Both the position numbers and the translations under genes were made by a program. From the NCBI GenBank assembly GCA_963726195.1, contig CAVSBO010000004.1, positions 96,001 to 160,000 of the forward strand: a stretch of 64,000 nt of DNA, given 5' to 3'. Source of the DNA: Candidatus Thorarchaeota archaeon. Its GTDB lineage: Archaea > Asgardarchaeota > Thorarchaeia > Thorarchaeales > Thorarchaeaceae. Numbering within the stretch: position 1 is the first letter of the stretch; the number at the start of each line of letters is the position of its first letter. The notes below the pieces were generated by a model. That model ran no database searches. It was not told where the DNA came from and worked only from the letters and a program-made list of their open reading frames with translations. Below are positions 5,984 to 58,732 of this stretch, piece after piece.

Positions 5984-6707
5984 ATGAGCAAGAAGACACA
6001 GAAGACTCCAGAGAAGAAGCCAGCTCCTCGTCCAGAGGCTGCGCCGAAGAAGGCTGTCGACCCACGCATGCACCCTATCCCCTTGAGGGTGGATTATGAC
6101 GAGAAGCATACGAACGACTTCCGCGGAGACGTAAAGGAAGTTGGCTTTCACTTCGCAGGTTACGAATGGTCCTCCAAAGAGGAGCAGCTTCTCATCGATT
6201 TGCATTATGATCAATTGTACTACTGGAAGTATGCGGAACTGTCAAAAATGGGGCGCGGCTTTCTTGACGGGGAATTGTGGGGAACTCAGTGCCCGAAATG
6301 CGGGGACAAGTTCTTTCCACCAAGGGTCAATTGCTGGCGTATCGAGGAAGACCTCCAGCGCACAAATTGGGTCAAGCTGGCACCCAGTGGACGCGTGCAT
6401 ACTTTCACTGTCGCGGGTTGGTCGGGCCGGTCGTCTCTAAAGAGGCTCCCGTTCGTTCTTGCATATGTAGTCGTAGATGATTGCAAGACTGCAATCGCCA
6501 ACGAACTCAGAGGCATCAAGCCTTGGGATGCTGAGTTCAGCATGCCGGTGAAGGTGGTCTGGGCCAAGAAGGAGGACCGACGCGGAGTGATAACCGACTT
6601 TTGGTTCGAACCGGCTGACGGCTGGAAACCCTCTCCGATGAATGCAGAGAAGGAACGAATCAAGGAGCTCTGCGCGCCAGTTTATGAATGGGTGAAGACC
6701 TGAAATA
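5984..6707 (+). CDS. Zn-ribbon/OB-fold DUF35 protein, partner of the upstream thiolase
   Basis: GTQCPKCG..FFPPRVNC, GRVHTFTV, LPFVLAYV, MPVKVVW. True end probably VKTLK-TAG (one C missing near 6700). Confidence 0.88.
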
Positions 6708-6797
6708 GTGGCAGCTTCTATGGAGTTGGAGATTTTGCCACTCTACGCTTTTTCCTATCGAGGCTGACATTACCTGAATCTCATCTCTCTTCGCATG

Positions 6798-7352
6798 CTA
6801 CATATCTAACTGGAATCTGTGCTGGAGTGGTGAGGTGGTATGATGGCAGGTTAATAGAAAGGATTGTGTGTGTGTGGGAAGAACAGATGTTCTCCATGTA
6901 GTTCTGTTGTGCAAGCACGGCGCCTGCGCTATCCGCAAGCAATGGAGTTTGGAATCGACATGACCATAAGAAGCAACGGAAACGCTACGCTTGCAGTGGC
7001 TGCAGATACACTCCTTCTTGAGCACTTGTCTTGACAGAGACGGACAACCAGCACACCAAAGACAAATCCAAAGAACGTCACAGGAAGAAGGCCAATCATA
7101 CTGAGTGGGTAGAGCCGAAAAATCCTGGTAATAGAAGTTGTAGTTGTCTCCGAAAGCGAATGTCCATAACGGCGCAATAATTACATGTTCCACGTAGAAA
7201 ACTTGATGGCCCACAATCCCATCTCCACTGATTGAACTAAACACTGCAATCGGTGCGAACAATGTCACAAGAGTCATCAAGAGCACAATCTGACGGATTG
7301 TGAGGGCACTGAACCATCTGATCGGCTCTTCATTCCCCGCTCGTTCCTCTCA
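6798..7352 (-). CDS. Hypothetical membrane protein, frameshifted
   Basis: Hydrophobic segments split between ORFs 6798-7286 and 6929-7177; TATA-like tttaata upstream near 7375. Confidence 0.5.
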
Positions 7353-7914
7353 AGGAGGTCACGCAAGAGTCCATATTAAAGCCATTGCCTGCACAACAGA
7401 ACGCGAACAGTGCAGTCTGTGCCGATGGAGCAGACAGGTGGTTACTATGACTGCAAACCTGATGAATTCAGCCGATGCCATCACAGACCTACTAACGATA
7501 TCGAGGAGTGAACAGTAGAACCTAGACCATGAATGATTGCAGCTATTATGACCTGACACGCCGTTTCACCAGCCAAAGAGTGTGGACCCAGGCAGCAGTA
7601 GAGTTTTTCGTTATGTTAACGCTCTTCAGCACAGTGTGGTAGTCGTTTCTACGCACGACTGAGTCCATGGGATGCATCCTGATGCGGAGATTCACGTGGC
7701 AATCATTCGCCTGCACGAGGAGATAGGGTCTCGGCTTCTGTATGGGCAGAGGAGTCAGTCCTAGTAGTGTGTTGAGAGGAAAACAGCCTCTTTCCAGTGT
7801 GCTTTCCTTGAGGAAGAGTGTCTCGAGCAACAGATTGATGGTAGAAGCCACCACTCTCAGCGACTTCTCACATCCTAGAAGAGAATAGACAGTGCTCCCA
7901 TAGTCAGCCAATTC

Positions 7915-9588
7915 CTATTTCTCGGGGCGTCCTAGAGATCTAATACCAATCTGGAATATCAATAGGCCCGACAATGTCAGGGGAAGACTGCCAAACAGAA
8001 AGAACGCATAGCTGGGGTCCGTTCCAAGCCAACCTGAACTAATCACTGCGACTGGCAGTCCTAGCGAAAACACCATCACAACTACGAGGGCCGAGATTAT
8101 GTTTAGCTTGTACATGGAGGAATGTTGGTCCTCGTATGTAGGGTTTATGGCTGTAACTCCAATCCCCGTGAGAGTAGACCCCCACACCAGCAACAGAGCT
8201 TGGCCAAAGATGGTTAGGCTAAGGGGAATGCTGAGTCCTAATAACCAGGTTGCCACGGCAGGCAAAACTGCGAGCGGCAAGGACAAGATAACCATCGCCA
8301 TCAGACGTGCATGAACTAGCTTATCCGATCCTCTTGGCGTAGTCTTGAAAACCCAGAGATGGTTCCTGCTCTCAAGGAAGCCCGTGCCACTAAATGATGC
8401 AACAGCGACAGTCGGGTATACCATGGTTACTGCCATCACCGCAAGGAGGAATATGACTCTAGGAATCAGCGACATGGTTTGGCTGTCCAGCCCACCCATA
8501 CTAGTGACAACAATCTGTACCACAAACCCGGGGATGGTCCCCAGGACAAGCGCGTAACAGTATCTGACAATGTTTGCGGTCTTCCGAAAGAAGTCCTTCA
8601 TTGCAACAACCACAAGTGCACCGGTTGGCCACCCGAAGACACGCCTAATACCGCGAAAGAATCTGTTCTCTTTGCGGACAGTCCTCACGATTTCGGTTCG
8701 GGCACCCAGGTCAAAAGTGAACACTCTATCTGCCGCCAGTGCTCCAGCCACAAGAGACAACAATGCAAAGGCCAACATGAGTACAGCACATCCCTGCGCG
8801 CTAGAGACAAGTACTGACTCAAATGCTTCTAGCTGCGCTGGTGAGAGCAATACCCCACTAAACAGCAGAACACTCCAAGTAACCAAATCCGCTCCCCAAG
8901 TGAAAGGCAGGAAGATTACCAGCTCGCTCTTCATCGACTGGTTCAGCAAATCAGGCAAGTATAGAAACAATATCACGGGCACTATCAGAATCAAAGCAGT
9001 CAGAACGCTAATCACCTTGGCGATGGCATCCCCGCGAGAGGATTGTGCCAGCCTCCCTCGAACTGTCGATGCCAGTATGTCTGATATCCAGAGTGCCGGG
9101 AACGTCGTGACGAGAACGCTCGCGTATATCGCAAGCACCCCTTCCCACTGTACCTGAAAGGTCGATATGACCGGTGAGATTAGGAGAGGTGACAGGCCCA
9201 TGACAAGGAAGAAATAGACAGGAACCTTGCCCAGCCATTGGCCAAAGAGTATGCTACGTGTGCTTGTGCCAGTGCTGAGGAGTATCTCACATTGTGCTAT
9301 CTTCATTTCCTGAACTGCTTTCGATATAGGGAATGCAAAGAACAGTAGCCACAACATCATAGTCACAGCCCTGACCATTGAGGACGGGTCGCTTGCGATG
9401 AGAATACTAAGGGCGGGCAGGAATTGACCGAATACGATGTCCAGCAGCCTAAAGGCGATCGTAGAGACCCATATGATGACGCCCAGCAGAAGTCCGATAA
9501 GGGCACTCTTTCGTGCTCTTCTGATTCTCTCTGTCGAGAGTAGGAACTCAACTTTCGCAATGGCTAGCCATTCCCTAGGCATACTCAC
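7915..9588 (-). CDS. ABC transporter permease (about 12-14 TM)
   Basis: Highly hydrophobic; GTGA-coupled to the upstream ABC ATPase. Confidence 0.8.
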   Translation of the reverse strand: MSMPREWLAIAKVEFLLSTERIRRARKSALIGLLLGVIIWVSTIAFRLLDIVFGQFLPALSILIASDPSSMVRAVTMMLWLLFFAFPISKAVQEMKIAQCEILLSTGTSTRSILFGQWLGKVPVYFFLVMGLSPLLISPVISTFQVQWEGVLAIYASVLVTTFPALWISDILASTVRGRLAQSSRGDAIAKVISVLTALILIVPVILFLYLPDLLNQSMKSELVIFLPFTWGADLVTWSVLLFSGVLLSPAQLEAFESVLVSSAQGCAVLMLAFALLSLVAGALAADRVFTFDLGARTEIVRTVRKENRFFRGIRRVFGWPTGALVVVAMKDFFRKTANIVRYCYALVLGTIPGFVVQIVVTSMGGLDSQTMSLIPRVIFLLAVMAVTMVYPTVAVASFSGTGFLESRNHLWVFKTTPRGSDKLVHARLMAMVILSLPLAVLPAVATWLLGLSIPLSLTIFGQALLLVWGSTLTGIGVTAINPTYEDQHSSMYKLNIISALVVVMVFSLGLPVAVISSGWLGTDPSYAFFLFGSLPLTLSGLLIFQIGIRSLGRPEK

Positions 9589-10338
9589 GTCCTCCAGTCG
9601 AGTAGACGCTCTCTTGGAACCTCGCCGCCAACTATCTTCATGTAAGCCCCTTCCAGACTCGTAGAACTGGTCTTGTCAACTATGTCTTGGGGTGACCCAA
9701 ACGCTATCAGGCGCCCGTTGACGAGTATTCCCAAAATCAGAGACCTCGGCCAGGTCCGTCATGTGAGTACATATGAAGAATGTCGTCTTCGTTTCTTCCG
9801 ACAGAACGCGGATCATGTCCTTGACCAGAATGCTGGCCGCAGGATCCAAATGCGATGTGGGCTCATCAAGAAATACTAGGGAGGGTTCATGTATCAATGC
9901 AGAGGCTACGAGGACCTTCTGCTTCATGCCGGCGCTGTAGGACTCCATCTGGTCATCTTCTCTTCCAGTTAGACCCAGTAAATCAAGCATCGTATCGATG
10001 CGTTTCATCAGAGCACCGTGATCCATATTGCGTAGTGCTCCAAGGAACTCCAGAAACTCGACTGCCGAAAGCTTGGAATAGAGACCAGGTGTTTCAGGGA
10101 GGAAGCCCGTAGCCCTCTTGATCTCGTTTCGCTGCGAGTGGATGTCGAAACCGCACACGGTAGCGCTCCCTTGAGTGGGTCTTAGGAACCCCACAAGTAT
10201 GCGAACAGTTGTTGTCTTTCCAGCCCCATTAGGGCCCAAGAATGCGAATCGACTTCCCTTCGGAATGTCGAGGTCCAGGCCTGCTAACGCCTCAATCTTC
10301 CCGTAATTCTTTGTCAACTTCCTAGTTGTTATTTCCAT
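9585..10338 (-). CDS. ABC transporter ATP-binding protein, frameshift near C-terminus
   Basis: GPNGAGKTT, YSAGMKQK, LVFLDEPT, CTH. Confidence 0.9.
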
Positions 10339-10369
10339 TATCTCCCGTTCCCAAAGCGTAGAGGCCGAT

Positions 10370-10740
10370 TCAGTCTGTATGAAAGTAGTAGAAGGCTGAC
10401 CCCCAAGCAATCGCAAGAGCGACAATCCATAGGGCGAACAACGCGACGGCCGCATTCACCGCGAGCACACCGTATCCTATGTAGGCGGCCATCCACGGCA
10501 TCGCAAACAGGAGGAAAATGAATGCATTCCGGGAGCCTAAGACAAAGAGTTGCATGCTCCGTTCATCCTTCCTCGAGTCTATCTGGCGCGCCACAAAATA
10601 AGAAGAATCACTGCCACAGTTGCAGACGCTACTATGAGCAGATGGAACGCTTGATCCGGGACGGCAATCATCAAGGATACAATGAACACGACAGCAATTA
10701 CTAAAAACGCCGCGTTTGCCAGTATATCCCTACGCTCCAT
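10370..10740 (-). CDS. DUF2178-like membrane protein, frameshift near 10590
   Basis: TM helices flanking KDERS motif; typical XRE-DUF2178-ABC operon layout. Confidence 0.65.
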
Positions 10741-10965
10741 GACTCTTCCCCCATAGTTGAAAATCTCCTCGATAGATATCTCGAACTCGGCTGCTAATCG
10801 GAATGCGAGTTCCAAGGATGGGTTGTACGTGCCCCGCTCTACAGCTATTATCGTTTGGCGAGTGACGCCCACCCTTTTTGCGAGAGCCTCTTGAGTCCAA
10901 ATCCCTGAATTGTCGTCTTCGTTCATGCGCTTTTCCCTCAGTTCCTTGACACGGTTGACAATCAT
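10730..10965 (-). CDS. XRE-family HTH transcriptional regulator
   Basis: NRVKELR...TQEALAKRVGVTRQTIIAVERGTYNPSLELAFRLA. Confidence 0.9.
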
Positions 10966-10984
10966 CCTGATCACGCAGGCCGAG

Positions 10985-11020
10985 ATGTAAAGTATACTAT
11001 ACGTAAAGCAAACTTTACAT
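10985..11020. promoter_or_regulatory. Tandem palindromic operator GTAAAG-N4-CTWTAC upstream of the XRE gene
   Basis: tgtaaag-tata-ctatacg overlapping cgtaaag-caaa-ctttaca, about 20 nt upstream of the ATG. Confidence 0.65.
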
Positions 11021-11051
11021 AAGTGCTTTGCGGTGACGGGCCGCGGCAGCG

Positions 11052-11257
11052 CGAGCTCTCGGGATTCGACCTTGGGATGTGAGTTCCTATGCCGGTGAAG
11101 GTGGTCTGGGCGAGGAAGGAGGACAGACGCGGAGTGATAACCGATTTTTGGTTCGAACCGGCTGACGGCTGGAAACCGCTCTCCGATGAATGCAGAGAAG
11201 GAACGAATCAAGGAACTCTGCGCGCCAGTTTATGAATGGGTGAAGACCCTCAAGTAA
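11052..11257 (+). repeat. Second copy of the DUF35 gene 3' end
   Basis: 11089-11248 matches 6542-6700 with 5 substitutions and 1 indel; ends VKTLK-TAA. Confidence 0.95.
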
Positions 11258-11267
11258 TCATTTCGTT

Positions 11268-11295
11268 GAGTCAGCAGATACTCCACTGCTGGCTC
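11268..11295 (+). terminator. Hairpin after DUF35 copy 2
   Basis: gagtcagcag-atactcca-ctgctggctc, 10-bp stem with one G-U pair. Confidence 0.5.
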
Positions 11296-11432
11296 CGCTT
11301 CATCTTGTCCCGGACGAGATACCTACGACGTTAGGGCGACTGGTGCAATAAACCAACACTGAGTCCCGGACAAGGACTATCGAAGGGTAGGGCAGGCACT
11401 GACGGGCTACCATAGTTTCTGCAGTACAGACT

Positions 11433-11815
11433 CTAGATGGAGTATGAATGCATTCTCATCCACTCTGCAAGCTCTGTGGGTGCCATCTCTCCCTGAGCGA
11501 CTCTTCTGACAGTAGTCTCAGCGTTTTCTGTCGATGCATTGAGTCCAAAACCATTGAGCAGTAAGAAAACCCTGGCTGCTGTCCAACCAGTCCTCTTATT
11601 CCCATCCACGAAGGGATGACGTATCACGATGCAGTGCATAAGTGCAGCGGCCTTGACCACACGGATTTGCCAGTTTCAGTACCGAAAACTGGCATCATGG
11701 GAAGTGCGACGCAGTTCTCCAATGATTCCTCGGATAGGATACCTGCTTCGCCGCCAAAGTCCATGATCATCCTGTCGTGAATCCGGAGTATCTCATCAAA
11801 GCTGAGATATCGCAA
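11433..11815 (-). CDS. doc: Doc/Fic family toxin, frameshift near 11660
   Basis: MRYLSFDEILRIH...KAAAL...HPFVDGNKRTG. Confidence 0.9.
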
Positions 11816-11840
11816 GCGAATCTAAGTCCTTATTCAGAGG

Positions 11841-12043
11841 CTATTGTGCTAACCGTCGTAAGAGTTGTGCATCTTCCTTCGTGATGTCGTCCAGCGCCTC
11901 ATCGAACGTGGCGTTGAACTCCTTTCCCCGAGGCTTTATCCGCAGAGTCGGAGGATGGTTTGGTCGAGTCTCTCTCCAGGAAGTCGTATCCTCTCCAGTA
12001 GACCATACACCTCCTCAGAGACCGAGATTCTCTTTGTGGTCAT
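11841..12043 (-). CDS. Antitoxin with VapB/DUF217-like N-terminus and Doc-neutralising-type tail; frameshift near 11940; not in ORF track
   Basis: MTTKRISVSEEVYGLLERIRLPGERLDQTILRLCG / IKPRGKEFNATFDEALDDITKEDAQLLRRLAQ*. Confidence 0.75.
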
Positions 12044-12111
12044 TAAGGCCAGACCTCAGCGATACATTCGTTCTGATTGATATAAGGCTGTAGATTGAGT
12101 GAATGTGTACG

Positions 12112-12358
12112 TATGTGGTCAAGGATGGGTGCAAGACCGCAGTAGCAAACGAGCTTAGAGGCGAGAAACCGTGGGATCCTGATTTCAACATGCCCGTGAA
12201 GGTAGTCTGGGCGCCGAAGCAGGATAGACGCAGCGTGATCACTGATTCCCACTTCGAGCCAGCAGACTGCCAGAAGCAGGGGCTCAATGATCTCGGAGAA
12301 AGAGCGAATCAAGGAGCTTTGTTTGCCCGTCTATGAGTGGGTAAAGACTCTCAAGTGA
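12112..12358 (+). pseudogene. Third, more diverged copy of the DUF35 gene 3' end
   Basis: YVVKDGCKTAVANELRGEKPWDPDFNMPVKVVW...EKERIKELCLPVYEWVKTLK*, colinear with 6464-6707, many third-position changes. Confidence 0.92.
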
Positions 12359-12364
12359 AAACAG

Positions 12365-12397
12365 GGGCGTCGGCAGACATGTCGCTGCTGACTGCCC
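12365..12397 (+). terminator. Hairpin after DUF35 copy 3, homologous to 11268-11295
   Basis: gggcgtcggcag-acatgtcg-ctgctgactgccc. Confidence 0.5.
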
Positions 12398-12547
12398 ACT
12401 TCTCCCCGATGAGGACGCCTTCCTCCAGAACGCCAACACATGAACATACTCCTTTGTCACGAGATAAGATCGGAGCAATCGCCCCAAGATTCTTTAGCTG
12501 GACCGAGCATCAAGAAGGATTGTTTTAAGAAAAGGAGATGGCGATCA

Positions 12548-12916
12548 TTGCCAAGAGTGAATTACTTTGAGTTTGTGGCCGATAACCCTGAGAGAGCGAA
12601 GAAGTTCTATCAGAGCGTGTTTGGTTGGAAAATCGAGAAGTGGAAGGGCCCAATAGAGTACTGGCTTGTGACAACAGGCGTCGCAAACGAACCCGGCATA
12701 GACGGAGGTTTCCTCAAGAGGCAGAGTCCACAGGATGTATCTGTTAACTTCATCGAAGTGTCTGACGTCGACAAGTACACGAAGCTCATAGAGAAGTCCG
12801 GCGGAACCATCGTACACCCCAAGCAGGCAGTCCCGGGTGTTGGCTGGATGGTCTACTTCAAAGACCCCGAGGGCAACGCTTGGGGTATGATGCAGAATGA
12901 TCGGTCGGCCAAGTAG
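12548..12916 (+). CDS. VOC/glyoxalase family protein
   Basis: RVNYFEFVADNPERAKKFY..VFGW, GIDGG, VPGVGWMVYFKDPEGN; aggag RBS and TTG start. Confidence 0.9.
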   Translation: MPRVNYFEFVADNPERAKKFYQSVFGWKIEKWKGPIEYWLVTTGVANEPGIDGGFLKRQSPQDVSVNFIEVSDVDKYTKLIEKSGGTIVHPKQAVPGVGWMVYFKDPEGNAWGMMQNDRSAK

Positions 12917-13293
12917 TCGTACTTCGGGCTATGATCACAGGTTGCAGTCGATTACAGATGAGCACAGACCCGGAAACATCGGATCTTGAAGGCGGTAGAT
13001 TCTTGCACACCGTCACGTTCAGGGCCCTTCAAGAGTCCTTACCTTTGTCCCTTGCTCGCTACTATCCGCCATGTCATGGCACACTGTCGAGAAAGGTCAG
13101 AAATACCTTGCGCTGAGCACAATAGTGGACCACTTCCCGACAACTCAGAGGAGGGTGCGAAGCCACGGCTCCGAATCGCGAGAAATAGCGAATCTAGTCC
13201 TTCCGCTAACCCGAAGCTACTCAAACGATGAGCATTTATCGTGAAAGGCACGTAGTTCTGCTAGCCCGTTGAAGTTCATCTGTGAGGTAAGTC

Positions 13294-13524
13294 TTGACGA
13301 TGCGAATCGATTACGACCCCGTTGCGGATGCCGTCTACTTTCATTTTAGGACTGCCGCTGTTGCAGACAGTGTGGAGATACGCGAGGGAGTAGTAGTAGA
13401 CTACGATGCCGACGGCAGTATTTGTGGCATTGAGATTCTCTCATACTCGAGACGCAACATGGATCTTAACCATCTCATAACCCTCCGAGAGGAGGAAATC
13501 GTCGCTGAGGTCGCCGTTGTTTGA
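13294..13524 (+). CDS. DUF2283 putative antitoxin
   Basis: MRIDYDPVADAVY...VVVDYDADGSICGIEIL. Confidence 0.88.
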   Translation: MTMRIDYDPVADAVYFHFRTAAVADSVEIREGVVVDYDADGSICGIEILSYSRRNMDLNHLITLREEEIVAEVAVV

Positions 13525-13759
13525 TCCTATTCACAAGGCACGCCTTGGAGCGGATGAAACAGAGAGGCGTTACCAGAGTGAAGTTGAGGCGGTCGTTGTT
13601 GGCGAGGCAATCACTGCTGTCGCAGATGGTAGTGGAAATCTAGTAGTGCAGAAAAGATTCAGGAATCGGATCCTTCGTGTGCACTTCCGTATTGTGAACG
13701 GCGACAGGCTCATTGTGACAGCATACTGGACCTCGAAGCTGAAGAAGTATCCGGCGTAG
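13521..13759 (+). CDS. DUF4258 (RelE-like) putative toxin, frameshift near 13580
   Basis: TTG at 13521 gives ILFTRHALERMKQRGVT, then ...ILRVHF...IVTAYWTSK; TTGA overlap with DUF2283. Confidence 0.8.
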
Positions 13760-13887
13760 AATGACAGGCGCAGAGCCTCTCGCCCTTCGATTATACGGCA
13801 ATCAAGATGAGCACTTGGATCCGCCTGCATGTTGAGAAATGAATTTAGGCTACCAGTGGACTCGTTCTTTGGTCAGATGGTGACGAC

Positions 13888-14355
13888 ATGAGCGCATCTT
13901 CTCCTCTAGACGAATGGCTTTTCCTCATTGGCACTTGGAAGGGCAAAGCGAAAGGGGGTCAGTTCGGCGAGAAAGACACGATTGAAGGCAACGCTGTCTT
14001 TTCGAGTGAGCCCGGTGCTATGTTTATCATGAGTACAGGTGAGAACTGGTCCGGAGGTCAGCTTCTCCACAAGAACATCAGCATCATGTTCTATGATGAC
14101 GTCGCAAGGAAGTTCAGGCGCAAGACCTTCTTCTCATATGGATTTGTCAACAACGAAGTGGAATGTGCAAGAACCAAGAACGAGATAACATTCGACATTA
14201 CTATGGAGCCATTGCCCAAGCAATTCGAGGGGACCAAGTGGCGTTCCTACATGAGAAAGATATCTGACACCAAGATAGCCACGGGACTTCAGACATCAAA
14301 AGAGGGGAAGGAATTCAAGTCCTACGGTGAATCAATACTTGAGAAACAAAAATAG
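13888..14355 (+). CDS. Beta-barrel protein (DUF1579/nitrobindin-like)
   Basis: FLIGTWKG N-terminal motif; beta-strand pattern. Confidence 0.6.
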   Translation: MSASSPLDEWLFLIGTWKGKAKGGQFGEKDTIEGNAVFSSEPGAMFIMSTGENWSGGQLLHKNISIMFYDDVARKFRRKTFFSYGFVNNEVECARTKNEITFDITMEPLPKQFEGTKWRSYMRKISDTKIATGLQTSKEGKEFKSYGESILEKQK

Positions 14356-14477
14356 GAAGATATGGAAGGACTTGTTCTCAGTGACCAGTACAACTGATTC
14401 CATGAGCGCAAGACACAATGTCCTCTTGCTGCTCTGAATGCAAAGTCCATTCTGTGGTCGTCGGAGGATATTGAGAG

Positions 14478-14897
14478 TTACTTGAGCGATCTACTCACTG
14501 AGGTAATGAAGTCCTTCAAGTCCTTGATTGCAGAAATGGCACTCTCGTGAACGATAGTGGGGTCTACGTCCAGATACATATGGACCAATACGTTCCTCAA
14601 CTTCACGAGCTCTATGAGTCTCCCTGCGAGTGCCGAACTGATGATACGGTTCTGTCCGATAATCTTCACCGCATCAATGTATGATTCCGGTGTTCCCCAA
14701 TGGTTGTGGGCCACAAGGTGAGTTGAGATATCAATTACGGCTTGGGCTGCCAACTGCAGATTCCTCTCAGTTGCGCCTTGGAGCACTTGGTCAGATAGGA
14801 ACCCTTCCCGGTCAGTCGAAGCCGCGACCTTTAGCACCTCAACTGCTCTGGCAATTCTGTCCAATCGGAGCCTTATGACAAGCGGGTCTACTGTCAC
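14478..14897 (-). CDS. hepT: HepT/DUF86 HEPN RNase toxin
   Basis: ERNLQLAAQAVID, RNVLVHMY (RX4HXY). Confidence 0.9.
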   Translation of the reverse strand: MTVDPLVIRLRLDRIARAVEVLKVAASTDREGFLSDQVLQGATERNLQLAAQAVIDISTHLVAHNHWGTPESYIDAVKIIGQNRIISSALAGRLIELVKLRNVLVHMYLDVDPTIVHESAISAIKDLKDFITSVSRSLK

Positions 14898-14902
14898 CCA
14901 GA

Positions 14903-16151: not shown

Positions 16152-16293
16152 CTCAGTATCACCATTAACTATAGTGAATTCGACCTTTATACACTATTTG
16201 AAAGCGGATGTGAACCACGAGCCAACCTTCAGCAAGTGATGCGTGTGATGCCTGCTGGTAATCTCGCGCAATACACGCGGAATCTCGCCTGCC

Positions 16294-18342: not shown

Positions 18343-18351
18343 CTTCTCTTT

Positions 18352-47560: not shown

Positions 47561-47566
47561 TGACAG

Positions 47567-49704: not shown

Positions 49705-50066
49705 TGGTAAGCATCTTCATTGTGGACGATGATGAGCTGATACACAAGGTGTTGGAACGCCTGCTAGCCGCTGCAGGTTTTCGCGTATCTGCACATGCCT
49801 TCAATGGGGCCGAGGCTGTCGAGAAGTTCGTTCAGATGAACCCGCGGCCCGACATTATTCTCATGGACCATCGGATGCCTGTGATGAGTGGTGCTGCTGC
49901 GACCCGGGAGATTCTCGCGTTGGACCCGTCTTCCAAAATCCTCTTTGTAAGTGCTGATGAAACTGTGAAAGATGAGGCCATCGCTGCAGGAGCTCTAGAC
50001 TTTCTGACAAAACCGATTCGTAGTGTCGTTCTGTTCGATATGATAAAGAAGTACGCATCCGCCTAG
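49704..50066 (+). CDS. Single-domain response regulator
   Basis: IVDDD, MDHRMP, SAD, KP. Confidence 0.92.
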   Translation: MVSIFIVDDDELIHKVLERLLAAAGFRVSAHAFNGAEAVEKFVQMNPRPDIILMDHRMPVMSGAAATREILALDPSSKILFVSADETVKDEAIAAGALDFLTKPIRSVVLFDMIKKYASA

Positions 50067-50626
50067 TCTCCATGTATCCGATAGGTGCAGGGGTTCTAAT
50101 CAGTCGTTTTAGTGATTACTGTGCGCAACAGGTGGTTTCTCCTGCCAATGCAGACACAATCCTGAGAAGCAAGACGAGATCCTGTCCTACAACCCTCCCC
50201 AAAGGCAACGGTGATTGATTCGACAGCAACAGCGGCAAACGCCCGTGCGGCGCACCACAGCTGCCGCCTCTCATGTGGAGGTAGCTCCTACCAAGACGCT
50301 ATGGCGGGTAGCCTGCTCACAGGTGCCAGCCTAGGAAGTAAGCCACATATACGCTTTCATCGGGGACCGCAGCATATGCACACAATACCATTATCAGGTA
50401 CTCCACGAAATCGTAAGGAAGGGTAGGTGTTTGGCAGTCGCTTCTCAAATAACACCTTGGACTCTTCTCGCGCTTCCAGAATGCAGTATACCAGCCCGAC
50501 TGGCTCCTGGAGGGTGAACACAGGTTGAGATGGTATCGCCATGAAAAAAAGGCTCGCGGGCAAGTCAGTGAGTCCGCAACAGCAAAGCCCTCGGGCGGGC
50601 TGAGGACTTCAGCTCAACCCTTGACA

Positions 50627-51865
50627 ATGGAAACACCCAACCCGACAACAGCCGACTATTGTGCACGGTCTAATGAAAGACTTCTATTCCTTTACCACAG
50701 AGCCTCAGGAATGGCGCCCTATTCCCACACGTTCGTGTCTGGAGGACATGATCCCCAGATGCTATCGGGAATGGTGTCAGCCATGTCAAGCTTCATGAAT
50801 GAAGTCACGGGGGTTCAGGAGTCCAAATGGAAAACAGTCTACGGTTCCAATTCGGTCCTTATCGTACAAGCGGGAGAGTGGATGGCTGGAGTCCTTGAAG
50901 TGATGAGAGAAACAAGCGAAATGCGAAGTAGGCTACGCCGCATCGTAAAGGAATTCGAAGATAGCTTTCCAATGTTCAGGGGCGGAGATGTCTTCGATGG
51001 GACCATCTTTGAACAGTTTGACAGATTTGTTAGACGCGTGTTCGTTGATGACAGGTTGTCAGAGCGCTCGGCTATTCTGAAGGGCTCCGACTGGGGTGAT
51101 ATCCACGGACAATATGCGCATCCCAGCATTAGCTTCAAGGTGGCAAGACTCTTGCATGGCCTCAAGAGCGGACAGTCAATCGCGGAAGTTGCTCAGTCAC
51201 AGGGCTTGCCCCTTGAGGAAGTCAAGAACCTCGTGTCAGAGGCTGTCTGGCAAAACGTAATCCATCTAAAGTACGTCCCAGCAGATGATGATGTTCTGGC
51301 CCTCTCGGAGAGGTCTTCCAGCGTGATCCTGAAGCAGGGAAACCCAATGGGAATCTCCTCTGCGGCTCTGAGAGTGCTCGCACATCTTGATAGTCGCACT
51401 CCTGTTTACTCCCTTATGAGAGGAGTGGGTTCAGAGTCTGTCGACAGAGTGCTGGATGAGCTAGGGAACCTGATTGATGAGGGATACGTTCAAAGGATTC
51501 CACTTGAAAGACGCTTTGTTCTGCTACACGAATGTATCCTCTCTCGATTCATGGCCGCAATCGCCAAAGCTACAGGTCCCGCAAGAGCAAGGAGCTGGTG
51601 GCTAACCGTTTGCAGCAAGGGGACTGACCAGCATCCGTTGCTAGGAAGGATCCATCTCACAAGAGACTTCCGAGCTAGATGTGTGATCGAAGATACCATG
51701 ACTCCCGCTGACTTGGACAACATGTACGACGCCCTTGGCTACCTCATAAACGAGATTGAGAATCAGCCATCGATAGCAAGAGATTTGAACAGAAACCTGC
51801 TCCAAATCGCCAGAGAGCACTGCCGCCGGACATGGGGCTCATACTTGATGGACACAACATTGTAG
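50627..51865 (+). CDS. Longin-like domain plus tandem winged-helix protein
   Basis: FLYHRASGMAPYSHTF..DPQMLSGMVSAMSSFMNE...RLRRIVKEFE, then two HTH-like segments. Confidence 0.7.
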   Translation: METPNPTTADYCARSNERLLFLYHRASGMAPYSHTFVSGGHDPQMLSGMVSAMSSFMNEVTGVQESKWKTVYGSNSVLIVQAGEWMAGVLEVMRETSEMRSRLRRIVKEFEDSFPMFRGGDVFDGTIFEQFDRFVRRVFVDDRLSERSAILKGSDWGDIHGQYAHPSISFKVARLLHGLKSGQSIAEVAQSQGLPLEEVKNLVSEAVWQNVIHLKYVPADDDVLALSERSSSVILKQGNPMGISSAALRVLAHLDSRTPVYSLMRGVGSESVDRVLDELGNLIDEGYVQRIPLERRFVLLHECILSRFMAAIAKATGPARARSWWLTVCSKGTDQHPLLGRIHLTRDFRARCVIEDTMTPADLDNMYDALGYLINEIENQPSIARDLNRNLLQIAREHCRRTWGSYLMDTTL

Positions 51866-52084
51866 CGGCGGAAGTTGAATCGTTCTTGTCGTTCTCCTAC
51901 GGTTTGCTGGTTGGGTCCGCATCCTTGCAAAAGGTGATTGACCATGGGCTGGTCCACGCCGATTGATGATAAGGGTTCAGGCGTTCCCGGGCGGCCTGTC
52001 ACGACAAATCATACATATTCAACCCTGACAAATAGCCCTCTGTCGAACCTAGGCCGGCTATTCAAAACAATGTGCATTATGAAA

Positions 52085-53197
52085 CTAGATTGCCTTCGGC
52101 AGCATTACCTTGAACGTGGCACCTGATCCCTTCTCAGTATCGACTAGCTCGATGGACCCCCCCATTCCATTGACAATTTCTCTAGAGAGATACAGTCCAA
52201 GCCCCCCTCCCGTTGTGGAAGCTCCCTTCTGAAAGAGCTTGTCCCTCAATGATTCTGCTATCCCGGGGCCATTGTCAGAGACAACGACTTGGGCATAGCT
52301 TCCCACGAGTGAAACATGCACCTCGACTGTGGGTGTTGCCCCCGCGTATTTGGCTGCATTCCGCAATAGGTTGTCAAACACGGCTGGCAGAAGCCTGCTT
52401 TCCTCAATCTTCAGGTCTTCAGCTTCTGGGTCAACAATCACGTTGACTTTCATGCCGGTGTTAGCCTCTTCCGCCTGTCTGCAAGCTCCCCTAACAAGCA
52501 ACGCGATACCCCTCCCTAAAGAGTCTGAGGGTTTGCCAAGTGCTTGCAGTAGGCCCATCATTCGCTCTGATACAGCTTCTATTGAGGACAGAGCTTCCCG
52601 AACGCCGCTATCGCTTCTATCGGTAATCATGCGAAGCAAATCTACATTCGATAGGATGACATTCATGTCATTCTTCAAATCATGGCGAAGCAGAGAAGAA
52701 TACAGTTCGAGTTCCCGCTGTAGTTGAACTCCTAGCCTCTTGGCACGTGTCCTTTCGATGAATGCCGATAGCTCAGCAGCGAGGGTATCGATTAGTATTC
52801 GTTCTTCGAATAGAAAGGGCTCCTCATTATGCTTCGGCTTCATCTCCTTGAGATAGGAGACATCCAAGCGCCCCGCTTTTCCCTCAGATGTCACTATGTC
52901 GGACGACAGCATCCAAGGCGTTTCAAGAAAATTCTCCGTCTGCACACACAGGCTTCCGATCACGACTCTAGAACAGGCAATAGATTGGTGTTGAAACCCC
53001 TCTATTATGACATGAACAAACGTGTACAGAGTATCATTTACATTCTTCTCCAAGTCCGAGAGAATCTGCCTGACAGTGAAAAGGCAGACAATCTGGTGGC
53101 CAGCACGCGCAACGGGGGCATCGCTGTTCGTGGTGACCTTTGGCCCAGCAGACTTTGGTTTGTCTCCTCTCTTAGGCGCCAATGCTTGACCCTCCAA
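52085..53197 (-). CDS. Sensor histidine kinase with GAF-like N-terminus
   Basis: LLRHDLKN, NLLRNAAKY, DNGPGI, GGGLGLY. Confidence 0.9.
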   Translation of the reverse strand: MEGQALAPKRGDKPKSAGPKVTTNSDAPVARAGHQIVCLFTVRQILSDLEKNVNDTLYTFVHVIIEGFQHQSIACSRVVIGSLCVQTENFLETPWMLSSDIVTSEGKAGRLDVSYLKEMKPKHNEEPFLFEERILIDTLAAELSAFIERTRAKRLGVQLQRELELYSSLLRHDLKNDMNVILSNVDLLRMITDRSDSGVREALSSIEAVSERMMGLLQALGKPSDSLGRGIALLVRGACRQAEEANTGMKVNVIVDPEAEDLKIEESRLLPAVFDNLLRNAAKYAGATPTVEVHVSLVGSYAQVVVSDNGPGIAESLRDKLFQKGASTTGGGLGLYLSREIVNGMGGSIELVDTEKGSGATFKVMLPKAI

Positions 53198-53846
53198 ATC
53201 CCTTCAGGCAGTTCCCGGTGGGCTCTGTCCCGCTTGATGCCACATCAGATTCACTGTCCTCGTAGTCCACATCCGTCAGAGGAGAGGTCAAGGATTGACG
53301 TACTTCTGCATAAACCCCCTTATAACTTTTCGACTAGGAACTCTGTGCGACTATTTTTTCGAGAAGGGCTGGTCCCGAGTCAGCTGTTCTAGTGTGTCGG
53401 TTAACAAGAGCATTAGTACAGCAATTCGCGATTAGCAGCTAAAGGCCCGTTCAGCGACCCTCAATTCCTTCGAGAGATTGTGATTGCGTGAACTCCAAGT
53501 TGAAAACTACAGGTCTCAGGAAATGAGATGTGTGCCTATCGAACCTGATATGCAGAAGCACTTGGTTTGACCGTAGACGTGTAGCTGTGGCAGCCTCCTC
53601 GGTAGAAGCAAGAAGCTCACCGGAGGCAAGTTGTAGGAGGTCGTGTGAGGCAGGTCGGCACCGGTCGTTTGACAAGACCAAACTAAGGAGGCCCTTCTTG
53701 AGCACCAATCTGTAGCAGATTCGCTTATCTGCATTGTTCCGTGTTTATTCAATTGGGACTCGTGCAATTCGCAGCCAATGCTTGTGGCCGCCGCGATTCT
53801 GTCAAGGGTTGTTGGGTAGGGATGTCTGACGACGGTTGAAGCGAAG

Positions 53847-55970
53847 ATGGACTCGTCCAGCATGGAGAAGCTCGTTAGAAGGAGCAGATTGCTCGATGCT
53901 GCGGGCAGGATTCTTCTTGATTCATTGAAGTGCGATACCTTGCGGGAAGTGGCATCATTGGGCCTTACTGCCATTGAGGATTTGGTCGGGAGCGAATTCG
54001 GATTCGTTGATGAGATAAACGCCCAAGGGACTCTCGATGCAATCGCTCTGGGTGGCATCGGCTGGGAAGCCTGTTCCCGAGAGCCGGAACGGGCAGGAAA
54101 GCAGCTGGCAGGTTTGCCAATAGGAGGCTACTGGAGCAAACCTGTTGTCACAGGAGAGCCGGTGCTGGTAAACAGCCCGAATTCATATCCGGAGGGACTC
54201 GGAATACCTGAAGGGCATCCTCCGATTGAGTGCTATCTCGGCGTGCCGATAAGATATGGAACAAGAATCGTCGGCCTTATAGGACTTGCCAACAAGCCAG
54301 GAGGATTCACACAGTCAGATGTTGAAGACGTGAACGAGTTATCCTTGTGGCTCGCAGACATCATCCTACGAAAGCATTTGGAGGATGGCAAAGAACAGGC
54401 CGTCCGGTACTATGAGGGCTTGTTTTCAAATGCCATAGTCGGCATCGCCCATTGCAGAGTCCTGACTGACGAGGCTGGCAATCCCGTTGACTATGAGTTC
54501 TTGGATGTAAACCACGCGTATGAAGTGCTCGGAGGGCTTGAGAAGGAGAAGATCATTGGGAAGAGGGTCACAGAGGTGCTTCCGGACATAGTGCACGATG
54601 ATTTCGACTGGATTGGCACTTACGGACGCGTCGCTCTCACTGGCGAACCAATGACGTTCGAGGCGCACTCTTCATCGTTGGACCAGTGGTATCTAGCAGC
54701 TGTATATAGCCCGAGGAAGTACGACTTCATTGCCTCTCTTGTGAACATCACTCGTGAACACCTTCTGCAGGCGGCACTGAGAGAAACTGAGACCTTGACC
54801 ACAGTTCTGTTTGAAAATGCACCAATTTCACTCTGGGAAGTGGATCTATCAAGCGTCAGGTCGAAGGTGGCCCAGGTGGAAAGCTCGTGTCAGGTGGACC
54901 TCGGGCGCTATTTGCAGGACCACCCCGGAGCCCTTGCCGGGCTCGTCTCTGACGCGTATGTGCGCAAGGTCAATGGGCGGACGCTGGAGCTTTTTGGCGC
55001 AGAAACCGAGCAGGATTTCCAGTTCCACCTGCCAGAAATCATCACTGACACGAATTTTTTCCTGACAATTGTTTCTGCTCTTGTCGGACCTGAGCGTGGA
55101 ATCACAACTCAAGGAGCCCTCAGGACTCTGCAGGGCAGGAACATCGAGGTCGGAGTCAAGGCAAAGGTTGTTCCGGGCTATGAAGCAACCTTAGGGAAAG
55201 TGATCATTTCTGTGACTGATGTGACAGCCCTGAGACAGGCCGACCAATGCGTGAAGGAGCGTACTGCGCAGCTGGAAAACGCCAACAACGAGATCGAGTC
55301 GTTCTCGTACTCTGTATCACACGATTTGAGGGCCCCGCTCCGAGCTATCGATGGTTTCAGCAGAGAGCTGCTCGAGGGCTATCGCGGTAGTCTGGACGAA
55401 AAGGGAGTCCACTACCTCGAGCGCGTAAGAGTGGCCGCTCAACGTATGGGCGTTATGATTGACGATCTCCTGAAGTTATCTCGGGTCACTCGGTCACAGA
55501 TGAACCGTGAGTGGGTGGACGTGACATCCATGGCCAATGAGATTGCCGAAGAACTTCGCCGCAGTGATGAGAACAGACATGTCGAGTTCGTCATAGCAAA
55601 TGACATTGTCGCAAACGCAGATAAGGAACTCCTCCGTGTTGTGTTGAACAACCTGATAGGAAATGCGTGGAAGTTCTCTGCGAAGTGTCCGCTTGCAAGA
55701 ATCGAAGTGGGAACGCTAAGAGAGGGTCCGAACACTGTGTATTTCGTGCGCGACAATGGTGTGGGCTTTGACATGCAATATGCAGACAAGCTGTTCATTG
55801 CGTTTCAGCGACTCCACACGCAGGAAGAGTTCGAGGGCACAGGGATTGGGCTGGCGACAGTGCGTCGCATCGTCAATCGGCACGGTGGGCGAGTCTGGGC
55901 TGAAAGCACTCCTGAGCAAGGAGCAACATTCTACTTCACAGTACTGACGGAGGAAGCCATGAATGTCTAG
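53847..55970 (+). CDS. GAF-PAS-PAS histidine kinase with bacterial phytochrome-type transmitter
   Basis: PEGHPPI..YLGVP GAF; YSVSHDLRAPLR; NAWKF; FQRLH; GTGIGL. Confidence 0.92.
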   Translation: MDSSSMEKLVRRSRLLDAAGRILLDSLKCDTLREVASLGLTAIEDLVGSEFGFVDEINAQGTLDAIALGGIGWEACSREPERAGKQLAGLPIGGYWSKPVVTGEPVLVNSPNSYPEGLGIPEGHPPIECYLGVPIRYGTRIVGLIGLANKPGGFTQSDVEDVNELSLWLADIILRKHLEDGKEQAVRYYEGLFSNAIVGIAHCRVLTDEAGNPVDYEFLDVNHAYEVLGGLEKEKIIGKRVTEVLPDIVHDDFDWIGTYGRVALTGEPMTFEAHSSSLDQWYLAAVYSPRKYDFIASLVNITREHLLQAALRETETLTTVLFENAPISLWEVDLSSVRSKVAQVESSCQVDLGRYLQDHPGALAGLVSDAYVRKVNGRTLELFGAETEQDFQFHLPEIITDTNFFLTIVSALVGPERGITTQGALRTLQGRNIEVGVKAKVVPGYEATLGKVIISVTDVTALRQADQCVKERTAQLENANNEIESFSYSVSHDLRAPLRAIDGFSRELLEGYRGSLDEKGVHYLERVRVAAQRMGVMIDDLLKLSRVTRSQMNREWVDVTSMANEIAEELRRSDENRHVEFVIANDIVANADKELLRVVLNNLIGNAWKFSAKCPLARIEVGTLREGPNTVYFVRDNGVGFDMQYADKLFIAFQRLHTQEEFEGTGIGLATVRRIVNRHGGRVWAESTPEQGATFYFTVLTEEAMNV

Positions 55971-56391
55971 TCGAAATGGGGACTTACTACTCGTTGAGGA
56001 TAATCCTGATGACGCGGAGCTCGCGATTGATGCCTTAGAGGGGGCGAAATTGCTAAACAGGATAGTGCGCGCTCACGACGGGGAAGAGGCTCTTCGATAT
56101 CTGTTTCAGGCGCCACTACACCCTCTTCCCGTTGTAGTGTTGCTGGACCTGAAAATGCCCAAAGTGAACGGTCTTGACGTACTGAAGCGTATCAGGTCTG
56201 AGAACAGGACAAGGACCCTGCCAGTTGTCATCGTGACCTCCTCCAAGGAGGATCGCGACATTCGTGCGTGTTATGACCTCGGAGTGAACAGCTACATTGT
56301 CAAGCCCGTGGACTTCGAACAGTTCGTATCATGTGTGAAGCAGCTCGGTCTATACTGGGTGGTCCTCAATACGGTACCGCCTGTCTCGTGA
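55963..56391 (+). CDS. Rcp1-type single-domain response regulator
   Basis: LLVEDNPDD, LLDLKMP, TSS, GVNSYIVKPVDF. Confidence 0.93.
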   Translation: MSSRNGDLLLVEDNPDDAELAIDALEGAKLLNRIVRAHDGEEALRYLFQAPLHPLPVVVLLDLKMPKVNGLDVLKRIRSENRTRTLPVVIVTSSKEDRDIRACYDLGVNSYIVKPVDFEQFVSCVKQLGLYWVVLNTVPPVS

Positions 56392-56403
56392 GGTGAGGTT
56401 CGG

Positions 56404-58312
56404 GTGCCAGTCCTTCGAGTACTCATAATAGAGGACTCAGAAGACGATGCAGACTTGATAGTTCTTGAATTAGAGGGAGCGGGGTGGCAGTTAGTCCACA
56501 AGCGCGTAGAAAGCAGTCAACAGATGTTGGCGAGCCTGAGAGAGAACGAATGGGATCTTGTGCTGTCTGACTATTCTATGCCCGGCTTCAGTGGGCTTCA
56601 AGCGCTTGACATCTGGAAGCAACAAGGCTCTGACGGGCCATTCATAATTGTTTCAGGGACGATTGGCGAGGAACAGGCCGTGGAGGCCGTGAAGTCTGGG
56701 GCGCACGACTACGTTCTGAAGAACAATCTCAGGAGGCTTGGTCCAGTTATTGACCGTGCTCTTCGGGATGTAGAAGGCAAGCGTCTGCGACTTGAGGCTG
56801 AGGGATCCTTACGCTCAACCATGGAACTGTTCAGAAAGACTCTCGATAGTCAGAGGGACGCAGTCTTCGTTCTAGACATCAACACTCCTCCAAGAATCCT
56901 AGAAGTCAATTCTCCCGCGACAGGGATTTTTGGCTACTCACGAGAGGAGCTCGTGGGGCAGTCCGTTAGCATTCTTCATGTTGACGAGGCAAGATACAGC
57001 AAGTTTCCGTTCGGTTGTCAGTCGCGATATGTGGGAACAAGGCTATTCTCAGCTTGAATTCAGTATGAAGAAGAAGGATCAAAGTTTCTTTCCGACCGAA
57101 CATGTGGTGACCCCAATTGTGGGCGAGGACGGGGTACAATCTGGATTTGTCAGTGTAGTACGCGATATAACTAGTCGAAAAGATTCTGAGAAGGCTTTGA
57201 GGGAGAGGGATGAGCTCTATCGTCTGACCATCGAGTCGACTGATGATGGCATAGCAGTTGTTGCCCTCGATGGTCACGTTCTTGAAGCGAACTCTCGTTT
57301 CATTCAAATGTGGGCGGTTCCGGAACCTGTACTCCAGAAAGGGGGCAATGAGCTGATCAGTCACATGACCAATAGGCTGGTGGCAGTCGAAGGTCTGACT
57401 TCCGAGGGATGGAGTCCCCTATTACCCGAGGATCTCGGCCCTTCACGTGATATCTTCCACCTGAAGGATGGTCGCATTCTTGAGGTCTATCAGGCACCTG
57501 TTGTGAGGGACGGAACAGCCATAGCGCAGCTCTGGATGTTTCACGATATCACCCAGTTGGAGAGAGCCCGACAATCTGCAGGGCTATACCTGGACCTCAT
57601 GTGTCATGACATCAGGAACAGACTCCAAGTGATTACCATGAATGTTGATCTCATGGGCATGCTCTTTGCGGGCTTGGATGTTTCCTCATATCTTTCTCAG
57701 ATACAGAGCGACGTTACCAGATGTGCAGAGTTGATCGGCAAGGCAAAACAAACTGAACGACTTGAGGAAGTTCCCCTACGATTGATATCGCTGTCCCAAG
57801 CTGTCAGAGAGAGCACAGCCTTGGTCCTTGGTCACTACAGTGATGTTGCAGTGGAGCTGTTTCTGGGGAACTCAGAAGCCTTCATTGAAGCTAACGAGTA
57901 CCTTACGGTGCTCTTGGCACAGCTTATGCAAAACGCTGTCATTCACAACCCGCGTGAGGCTAAGGCCATATGGATACGCCTTGACGAGCATCATGAAGAC
58001 TATGAGTTGTCAGTAGCTGATAACGGATCAGGAATCCCTGACAGTAGGAAGCAAAGCCTGTTTGATAGTAGCAGGAGGTATGGCGGTATCGGACTTCACC
58101 TGGCTCATCACATAATGGACAGATACGGAGGCAGAATTGCTGTCCGGGATCGTGTCGAAGGTGACCCGAGCCAAGGAGCGGATTTCTGGGTTTCCTTTCC
58201 AAAGCCCCATCGACATCAGGTCGACTTGGCCAACCGTATGCCCGGTGAGGGTATCGTGGATTCGTCCGGGACTGTTTCTAAGACTGGTGATTCACAGAGC
58301 ACAATAACATAG
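56404..58312 (+). CDS. REC-PAS-PAS hybrid histidine kinase, frameshift near 57005
   Basis: IIEDSEDD/SDYSMP REC domain; two PAS; LDLMCHDIRN; DNGSGI; GGIGL. Confidence 0.88.
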
Positions 58313-58639
58313 TTCCGATTGTAGGGGGGCTAGATTGCTCCCTCCTAACATGGACCTTCTCTCTGGCAGACAGTGAAAAGGCTCATACGCCGTGTGCTTA
58401 ATGAAACACTCGGCCTAGGATCGGCAGCAACCGCTTACTTACTTGAAACGGCCGTCCAGAACAACAGTATCTGTCGATTGAGACTGGTGACACACAATCG
58501 CACGCTTCGGATTCTGAGGGGTCATCTGGCATCACGTTTCGCCAAAGAGATAAGTCCAAAAGATGTGCAGTCTAGCCGGCTCTCGTTTGCATCCACAGGA
58601 CGGAGGTCACTAGGTACGACTGAGCGTGAGGCTGGGACT

Positions 58640-58732
58640 TGCGCCCCAAAATGCGCCTCAATGGCACGAAGGGGATCCAAGAAGGAGAAACAACCGTGAA
58701 GACAGAGTTGATGAGTGCGAACTACGCCGCTG
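58640..58732 (+). repeat. Right copy of the porD/porA junction (relic porD end plus intact porA start)
   Basis: CAPKCASMARRGSKKEKQP* vs CPSKCISMVRKGETKEEQQ*; GTGA overlap at 58696. Confidence 0.9.

Follow-up and report, generated by a model that had tools for sequence, protein, structure and literature searches.

Three blocks of accessory genes in a stretch of Thorarchaeota DNA are bounded by diverged direct copies of the ends of the genes that they adjoin. Two of the blocks stand behind a gene for a DUF35/ChsH2-like protein with an OB-fold and a zinc ribbon, and the third stands between porD and porA. The stretch, here called the window, comprises 64,000 nucleotides (C4:96001-160000, contig CAVSBO010000004.1) and is part of a 2.9-Mb metagenome bin in 19 contigs with an estimated contamination of 3.9%. 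C2 to C19 denote contigs of this source assembly (G000), and G001 to G023 and the L-numbers denote genomes, contigs or loci of relatives, except that L051 and L072 to L074 are loci of the source; G001, G002, G003, L079, and L080 are congeners of the source, and L065 is a public metagenome-assembled genome. Domains were called by Pfam scans of about 60 open reading frames (ORFs) of the window, complemented by six-frame family searches over the whole genome (E ≤ 0.01; 0.001 for DUF87; the family's own cut-off for TnpB). Repeat pairs were first located with a repeat finder and alignments, and their E-values come from self-BLAST of the whole genome.

Accessory Cassettes between Copies of Gene Ends

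The DUF35 gene (5984-6703, plus strand; Pfam OB_ChsH2_C and zf-ChsH2) is intact, although a 1-nt indel, perhaps an assembly error, may have shortened it by two codons. Its live 3' end, W1 (6464-6708, plus), recurs twice further downstream. Relic W2 (11070-11255, plus), in which the last ~53 codons of the gene are duplicated, spans DUF35 codons ~181-239 with the stop codon and carries a 1-nt frameshift; relic W3 (12103-12356, plus), a duplicate of the last ~82 codons, spans codons ~158-239 and has one frameshift. W1 and W2 share 94.5% identity over 181 nt (6521-6700 and 11070-11248, E 2e-70), the identity of W2 to W1 being 94-97%. W3 is more distant, with 72% identity both to W1 (6464-6699 and 12112-12348, 237 nt, E 5e-27) and to W2 (11069-11255 and 12168-12356, E 7e-19). 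DUF35 relics always contain only the terminal part of the gene, on the same strand and beyond the intact copy, and always span the stop codon and the hairpin with T-tract that follows it. Their inner ends differ and fall at codons 115, 151, 158, 181, 187, 194, 207, 211, and 218.

The hairpin and T-tract are found 3' of the stop codon in every DUF35 gene and relic, in the window (6707-6755 behind the live gene, 11262-11300 behind W2, 12362-12400 behind W3) as well as in relatives from all genera examined. The stems vary in sequence between genera with pairing maintained, and the conserved structure looks like an intrinsic-type terminator, here in an archaeon. Some relics also have an in-frame ATG at their start or within them that is open to the stop codon, giving 53-126 aa (L071:90-248, window 11089-11255, L065:19947-20327).

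Cassette 1 (6704-11069), between W1 and W2, is an ABC-exporter/HTH block in which all annotated genes are on the minus strand: two unknown ORFs (6798-7286 and 7546-7911), an ABC permease (7915-9588), an ABC ATPase (9676-10455), and an XRE-type HTH membrane protein (10579-10950), the last three assigned by Pfam. Cassette 2 (11256-12102), between W2 and W3, holds a Fic/Doc toxin gene (Pfam Fic) in two frames on the minus strand (11433-11660 and 11624-11815).

At the second locus, the 11-kb cassette 3 (47561-58633) with its two-component genes separates porD (47198-47527, plus; Pfam Fer4; delta subunit with two [4Fe-4S] clusters, 62-80% identical in relatives) from porA (58696-59874, plus; Pfam POR_N and PFOR_II), and both genes are intact. 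The remainder of the split operon, porB, follows at 60010-60786 on the plus strand, as placed by tblastn in the genome and its relatives. The repeated unit is the junction of the two genes. Its left copy (47462-47560, plus) consists of the live porD end and a relic of the first ~13 porA codons in which the start codon is mutated (ATAAGG, against ATGAAG in relatives). The right copy (58634-58732, plus) consists of a relic of the last ~21 porD codons followed by the live porA start, a GTG aligned with the start codon of relatives. PorD residues 88-108 match 58631-58693 in tblastn, and the two copies are 77% identical over 86 nt (47477-47560 and 58649-58732, E 6e-7).

The genes assigned in cassette 3, mostly by Pfam, are a Zn-ribbon ORF (47567-47809, minus), a PAS/HATPase kinase in two frames (48578-49704), a response regulator (49701-50066), a 446-aa protein without an assigned family (50525-51865), a histidine kinase (52085-53197, minus), a GAF-PAS kinase (53847-55970), a second response regulator (55963-56391), and a regulator-PAS gene with a PAS kinase in two frames (56404-58312). 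The 446-aa protein has only 26-28% identical paralogues in G001 and G002, no match in G003, and 35-46% identical homologues in other genera of the family.

The original prediction, made from the letters of this DNA, had described three insertions with long, diverged direct repeats of gene termini or junctions, intact host genes, and cargo of accessory type (toxin-antitoxin, ABC exporter, two-component genes). All of its repeat pairs were recovered at the same positions, DUF35 (apart from the possible indel), porD, and porA are whole, and Pfam agrees with the nature of the cargo.

Empty Sites in Relatives

The blocks are lineage-specific insertions at gene termini. A CN-hydrolase/NAD-synthase gene (22255-23355, plus) is the ancestral downstream neighbor of DUF35, and its orthologue lies just 112-858 nt 3' of DUF35 in G007, G013, L081, and L084. 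The region from 6.7 to ~20-22 kb of the window is therefore a variable island, with this gene as its far edge. Cassette 1 is missing from the DUF35 position in 15 relatives. Likewise, porD, porA, and porB are contiguous and cassette 3 is missing in 14 of 14 relatives, same-genus G001 among them, so that the 11-kb block interrupts an otherwise invariant por operon.

Within the genus, four differing fillings are found behind DUF35 (in the window, C2, L079, and L080), each with DUF35 tail relics of its own, and the same anchor is occupied in other genera too. A glyoxalase gene (12440-12916) closes the island in the window and in the congener contigs L079 and L080; C2 stops short of its position. 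The closest other relatives of the cassette 1 permease are 32-35% identical and all from Thorarchaeota, which makes this cargo native to the phylum. Close copies of cassette 1 were sought in other genomes and none was found, nor did a circular or plasmid copy turn up.

Origin of the Relics and Recombination between Repeats

Differences between relics and gene are nearly all synonymous (pS 0.5-0.86, pN 0.04-0.16, dN/dS 0.02-0.17), as befits the allele-type divergence that had been predicted. The relics are thus former working gene ends derived from congeners; neutral decay of a local duplicate would not give near-saturated synonymous together with low nonsynonymous differences. In a tree of DUF35 3' ends the relics of the window and C2, W3 included, fall inside the genus clade, which argues for exchange among congeners. 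The genus is monophyletic at the protein level in this tree, so that nothing points to import from other genera.

The live genes carry traces of exchange as well. The DUF35 gene of the window is 84% identical to that of G002 in its upstream part and 67-78% identical from ~6290 on (its last 400 nt), and the C2 gene is 67% identical to that of G002, rising to 92-94% in the last 150 nt. DUF35 3' ends are mosaic between congeners.

The 5.6-kb contig C2 represents a variant form of window positions 6236-11755. Identity between the two is 99-100% in cassette 1, ~90% in the Doc block, and ~78% in the DUF35 gene. It breaks exactly at the repeat edges, 6700 and 11076, where DUF35 has its final codons and the relic its first bases. 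This gradient, seen on one short contig, fits an order in which the newest cassette lies nearest the gene, together with exchange through the repeats. Many 1-2-nt indels, mostly of C, separate window and C2 at 6700-7130 and hint at assembly or polishing noise. Genes split by a single frameshift occur at 11433-11815, 45636-47130, 48578-49704, and 56404-58312; they and the indels between window and C2 reflect either decaying cargo or assembly indel errors.

At the few sites where W1 and W2 differ, W2 mostly agrees with the C2 relic, and the sequences suggest gene conversion between W1 and W2. When W1, W2, both copies on C2, and G002 were compared site by site, the result was ambiguous as to which copy is derived from the donor. 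That homologous recombination acts on the repeats is supported.

Gene-End Relics across the Genome

Repeat pairs 40-400 nt long were counted over the whole genome at a spacing of 0.2-20 kb and compared with those spaced 20-200 kb apart. The local pairs comprise 109 direct against 7 inverted ones and form 43 clusters; at the larger spacing there are 22 direct against 14 inverted pairs. A protein-level scan of the genome found 14 terminal relics in the expected orientation, with anchor genes that include pyruvate-carboxylase-like, xylose-isomerase-like, FAD-oxidase, GT2, M20, acyl-CoA dehydrogenase, and OYE-type genes. C-terminal relics located outside genes lie downstream and on the same strand in 10 of 10 cases. 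The pattern therefore recurs genome-wide, as the original prediction had proposed for this lineage.

The pattern can also be read without any capture mechanism, as tandem duplication of a locus or of paralogous operons followed by deletions, or as chimeric assembly. Tandem duplicates likewise give same-strand downstream copies, and many of the repeat clusters, of which 38 are of direct repeats, are probably tandem paralogues. The assembly moreover shows indel-type differences and split genes. However, duplication cannot supply genes that 14-15 relatives lack at the site, the relic divergence is synonymous-saturated and not the neutral decay of a local copy, and neither the thiolase gene nor the por genes have another close copy in the genome. 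An assembler would not be misled by repeats as diverged as these (72-77% identity), and the same structures are present in independent assemblies (L065, L079, L080, G017, and G023). We therefore give hardly any credence to duplication or misassembly as the source of the blocks.

Mobility Genes and a Candidate Driver

The window carries no recombinase, transposase, or nuclease that could be detected by the Pfam scans and six-frame family searches, in agreement with the claim that the insertions lack mobility genes. On the window stretch of C4 there was no match to tyrosine or serine recombinases, HNH, GIY-YIG, LAGLIDADG, or HerA/DUF87, and none to TnpB above its cut-off. No integrase domain was found in the cassette ORFs, including those at cassette ends. 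In the whole genome there are one Xer-like tyrosine recombinase (the sole PF00589 match, on C17) and one resolvase, both off the window contig. No tRNA genes were found in the window, C19, the head of C10, L065, or L071.

Integrase-less satellite elements and integrase-free attC clusters are known in bacteria. The original prediction had offered a recombinase acting in trans as one possible route. An integrase of this integron- or satellite-like kind, using the repeats as attachment sites, would explain why the cassettes have sharp boundaries and no mobility genes of their own. However, the genome has just the one Xer-like recombinase and the one resolvase, both on other contigs, and no candidate for such an enzyme emerged. 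No motif is common to the DUF35 tail, the porD-porA junction, and the other anchors; repeat length at a single anchor runs from 21 to 125 codons, unlike fixed att or attC sites; and the breakpoints do not coincide with a fixed core inside the repeats. This part of the prediction is not supported in its original form, and we consider a trans-acting integrase very unlikely.

A different kind of enzyme was found behind the same DUF35 anchor in relatives. L065 has a 9.3-kb insert 3' of DUF35, closed by a 358-nt tail copy with 84% identity, and the insert encodes a small ORF, a 618-aa NUMOD3-HNH protein, and a 1028-aa HerA/FtsK-like ATPase. The 618-aa protein contains seven NUMOD3 motifs and an HNH domain and matches a PHROG homing endonuclease family (E 6e-35); it has no sequence match among solved structures. 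In L082 a small ORF and nuclease of the L065 type lie directly 3' of DUF35, and in L071 a DUF35 tail copy and an HNH homologue are ~3.2 kb apart on one short contig. In L090 (395-496 and 2448-2531) and L091 (230-394) a fragment from the C-terminal part of the small ORF stands behind every DUF35 tail copy, so that the repeated unit there reaches past the host gene into the element.

Comparable genes occur in the source genome itself, outside the window. At C13:118266-122949 (L051) a small HNH ORF lies ~100-180 nt 3' of a xylose-isomerase-like gene; a copy of the last 31 codons of this gene is found 3.7 kb downstream, beside a TnpB fragment. Three HerA modules, each made of an ATPase of ~1040 aa, a protein of ~1200 aa, and one of ~200 aa, were found on C19 (L072), at C10:6-4469 (L073), and at ~143.9-148.7 kb of C16 (L074). 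The C19 module is located between direct repeats of 85-93 nt, and the C10 module heads a 22-kb array of 43 direct-repeat pairs. The 1219-aa protein of the C19 module was considered as a homologue of the L065 nuclease and rejected, the two having no similarity. A GIY-YIG ORF at C5:112393-113704 adjoins a pair of 50-nt direct repeats, 92% identical and 1 kb apart.

Other Features of the Window

Directly 5' of DUF35, as always in relatives, is a thiolase-like gene (4718-5980, plus; Pfam Thiolase_C_1/N) with 80-95% identity to its counterparts there. Beyond W3 the remainder of the variable island (12357-22254) contains, according to Pfam, the glyoxalase gene, a DUF2283 pair, HEPN-MNT genes, membrane proteins, an ArsR regulator, a phosphoesterase, and an M28 peptidase gene (20058-21902, minus) that is probably ancestral at its place. 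The island was searched for extra relics of DUF35, of the M28 peptidase gene, of the gene at 22255, and of CN-hydrolase, and none besides W2 and W3 was found. The DUF2283 gene and an overlapping 80-aa ORF (13294-13759), between the glyoxalase gene and an ORF at 13888-14355, resemble a toxin-antitoxin pair. They are a further small insertion, because their two flanking genes are 215 nt apart in L079; no flanking repeat was seen around 13294-13759.

Upstream of the por locus, a pyridine-nucleotide-disulfide oxidoreductase gene in two frames (45636-47130) is inserted between a CN-hydrolase gene and porD, at a place where 14 relatives have only ~90-350 nt. Repeats were sought around this insertion and none was found. 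A 1508-aa ORF (39282-43808, minus) has no Pfam match at E ≤ 0.001; relatives have counterparts at 35-49%, with the same CN-hydrolase/DUF2299 genes close by.

Proposed Gene-End Replacement Seeded by a Nuclease

The WHO homing elements of Torulaspora and Lachancea yeasts, which reside at the aldolase gene FBA1, offer a model for what is seen here (Coughlan et al., 2020, PMC7282813; follow-up, bioRxiv 10.64898/2026.08.13.744650). At FBA1, fragments of the 3' end only, differing from the gene by at least ~15%, are interspersed behind the intact gene, the 3' part of which is far more diverse than the 5' part. The published model involves stacked insertions with the newest nearest the gene and a spare fragment that serves as second homology arm, without an integrase (PMC7282813). 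By analogy with these elements, we are inclined, with somewhat more belief than doubt, to explain the window by gene-end replacement that was seeded by a nuclease, after which the cassettes would have spread by homologous recombination. This reading is favored because the anatomy of the loci matches the WHO model. In addition, the presence of a NUMOD3-HNH protein and a HerA/FtsK-like ATPase at the same DUF35 end points to nuclease-driven replacement over spontaneous integration of circles by RadA.

In such a process, the template for repair or recombination would be DNA from a related cell in which an insert already occupies the gene end. The gene end itself would provide one homology arm and the spare end copy beyond the insert the other. 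In the recipient the gene would be left intact, followed by the insert and by a tail copy either displaced or imported, and repetition would stack cassettes with the newest next to the gene. Seeding would most likely be the work of homing-type elements composed of the NUMOD3-HNH nuclease (other nucleases in other copies), the HerA/FtsK-like ATPase, and the small protein. Their nuclease is predicted to cut an empty or differing allele, as WHO does at FBA1, and accessory genes would be carried along. A nuclease of this type would also have made the window's own cassettes, and the porD-porA insert would have arisen in the same way as those at DUF35. We propose that the cassettes of the window are passengers or decayed remains that still move between congeners via the repeats.

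Several observations weigh against this explanation. The three cassettes of the window contain no detectable nuclease or ATPase of the element and no remnant of either; tblastn with the L065 and C19 proteins reached at best E 0.017 and had no match inside the cassettes. The relic-bearing islands of G017, G023, L079, and L080 show none of these genes either. At porD-porA there is no nuclease-bearing variant, as all 14 relatives examined are empty. In strict homing of the WHO type, an element brings its new gene end along with it. Because the cargo is 100% shared with C2 and the adjoining gene end only 78%, extra steps are needed, either a crossover within the final codons or a conversion of the gene end at a later time. 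Finally, C2 is a short contig in a bin whose contamination is put at 3.9%, and its near-perfect middle could in part be a polishing artefact.

The nuclease-free state of the window cassettes could also be accounted for by Campbell-type integration, in which a circle with one copy of a gene end enters by a single RadA-mediated crossover within 100-250 nt of homology and so duplicates the end. Such circles could stem from recombination between the two repeats of a donor, or from a circularized chromosomal fragment. The product would be the same as seen, namely allele-type direct repeats, intact hosts, and cargo whose identity stops exactly at the repeat edges. Fragments broken at random would match the variation in where the relics start within the gene, and the repeats clearly recombine with each other. 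However, a single crossover within 85-180 nt at 75-80% identity is expected to be rare, and the first porD-porA circle would require two illegitimate joins around a junction fragment. It would also leave unexplained why nuclease/ATPase modules stand at the same anchor in at least three independent contigs and behind another anchor in this genome, and no circular form was observed. The original prediction had named RadA-mediated integration of circles as a possible route. Homologous recombination at the repeats is borne out, and circles may have delivered the nuclease-free cassettes of the window; as the general explanation they are in our judgment rather unlikely, and nuclease-driven replacement is favored.

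A wider reading of nuclease-seeded replacement can be offered, for which our doubts exceed our confidence. Thorarchaeota may possess a family of "conjugative homing elements", with a HerA/FtsK-type motor, an exchangeable nuclease, and a small partner, that target the ends of housekeeping genes and, through repeated replacement of these ends, build integrase-free, integron-like islands in which accessory genes are captured and stored, nuclease-free cassettes then passing between species through the spare ends. Cassette 1, 100% identical in two backgrounds that differ by 22%, would be an example. Gene-end relic arrays are not described in the literature on Asgard mobile elements that we examined, which covers integrases, aloposons, and viruses, and text searches gave no report of them.

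If gene-end replacement of this kind is at work, much of the accessory gene content in these Asgard archaea would enter and move via the ends of core genes and not by integrases or transposases. Genes would thereby have a concrete route of exchange among archaea closely related to the ancestor of eukaryotes. Such replacement would also explain chimeric 3' ends of core genes such as DUF35, which bears on phylogenies and on strain-resolved binning. The spare gene tails make such sites detectable by sequence alone and are possible markers of recent gene acquisition.

Comparison with Known Systems

Target-site duplications of transposons are 2-15 bp long, initially identical, and accompanied by a transposase and terminal inverted repeats. 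The repeats described here measure 86-237 nt, are 72-94% identical, and have diverged in synonymous fashion, and no transposase domain was present in the scanned ORFs. They had been predicted to be too long for such duplications; they are indeed far too long, and too diverged as well.

Elements with a tyrosine integrase insert at the 3' ends of tRNA or protein genes, and the tycheposons of Prochlorococcus form islands anchored at tRNA genes; the target end is duplicated, the gene is restored, and arrays of partial copies with cargo-only units can result. These gene-end elements depend on an integrase and a defined core. In contrast, there is no integrase in or near the loci of this study, the repeats vary widely in length at a single anchor, and their copies are 6-28% different.

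Integrons, which reportedly occur in Archaea, resemble these islands in function, with serial capture of promoter-poor accessory cassettes at one site and the newest nearest the anchor. Integrons have the tyrosine recombinase IntI with an attI site at the head of the array, and their cassettes end in attC sites, imperfect palindromes that are unrelated to host genes. Unlike integrons, the islands have no IntI, attI, or attC hairpin sites. Their boundaries are in-frame copies of the coding ends of DUF35 or of porD and porA, and the repeat differs from anchor to anchor.

Free-standing homing endonucleases of phages, and endonuclease ORFs with a duplicated gene end in fungal mitochondria, adjoin their target and spread by repair in which the end of the adjacent gene is co-converted. 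The nuclease genes at the DUF35 end in relatives resemble them in that they stand beside, not inside, the target. Free-standing homing endonucleases are single small ORFs with neither cargo nor ATPase, whereas the islands here are accessory and several kilobases long.

The WHO elements differ in several respects from what lies in the window. No homing endonuclease is present there between gene and fragment, as one is at L065, L082, and the C13 anchor, and the window cassettes carry accessory genes instead of a nuclease. The WHO nuclease is an intein-derived LAGLIDADG-zinc-finger protein acting in meiosis, whereas the candidate here is an archaeal NUMOD3-HNH protein with a HerA/FtsK-like ATPase. 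The anchors of the window also include an intra-operon junction, porD-porA, with relics of both 3' and 5' ends, and the cargo shared with C2 came without its adjoining gene end. The likenesses concern the architecture itself. As in WHO, the duplicated fragments comprise only the terminal part of a gene, on the same strand and beyond the intact gene, and as in WHO, the end of the host gene is diverse and mosaic and the fragments show divergence of the allele type. Should the nuclease-seeded explanation be correct, a class of gene-end-replacing homing elements described in Torulaspora and Lachancea (PMC7282813) would extend to archaea.

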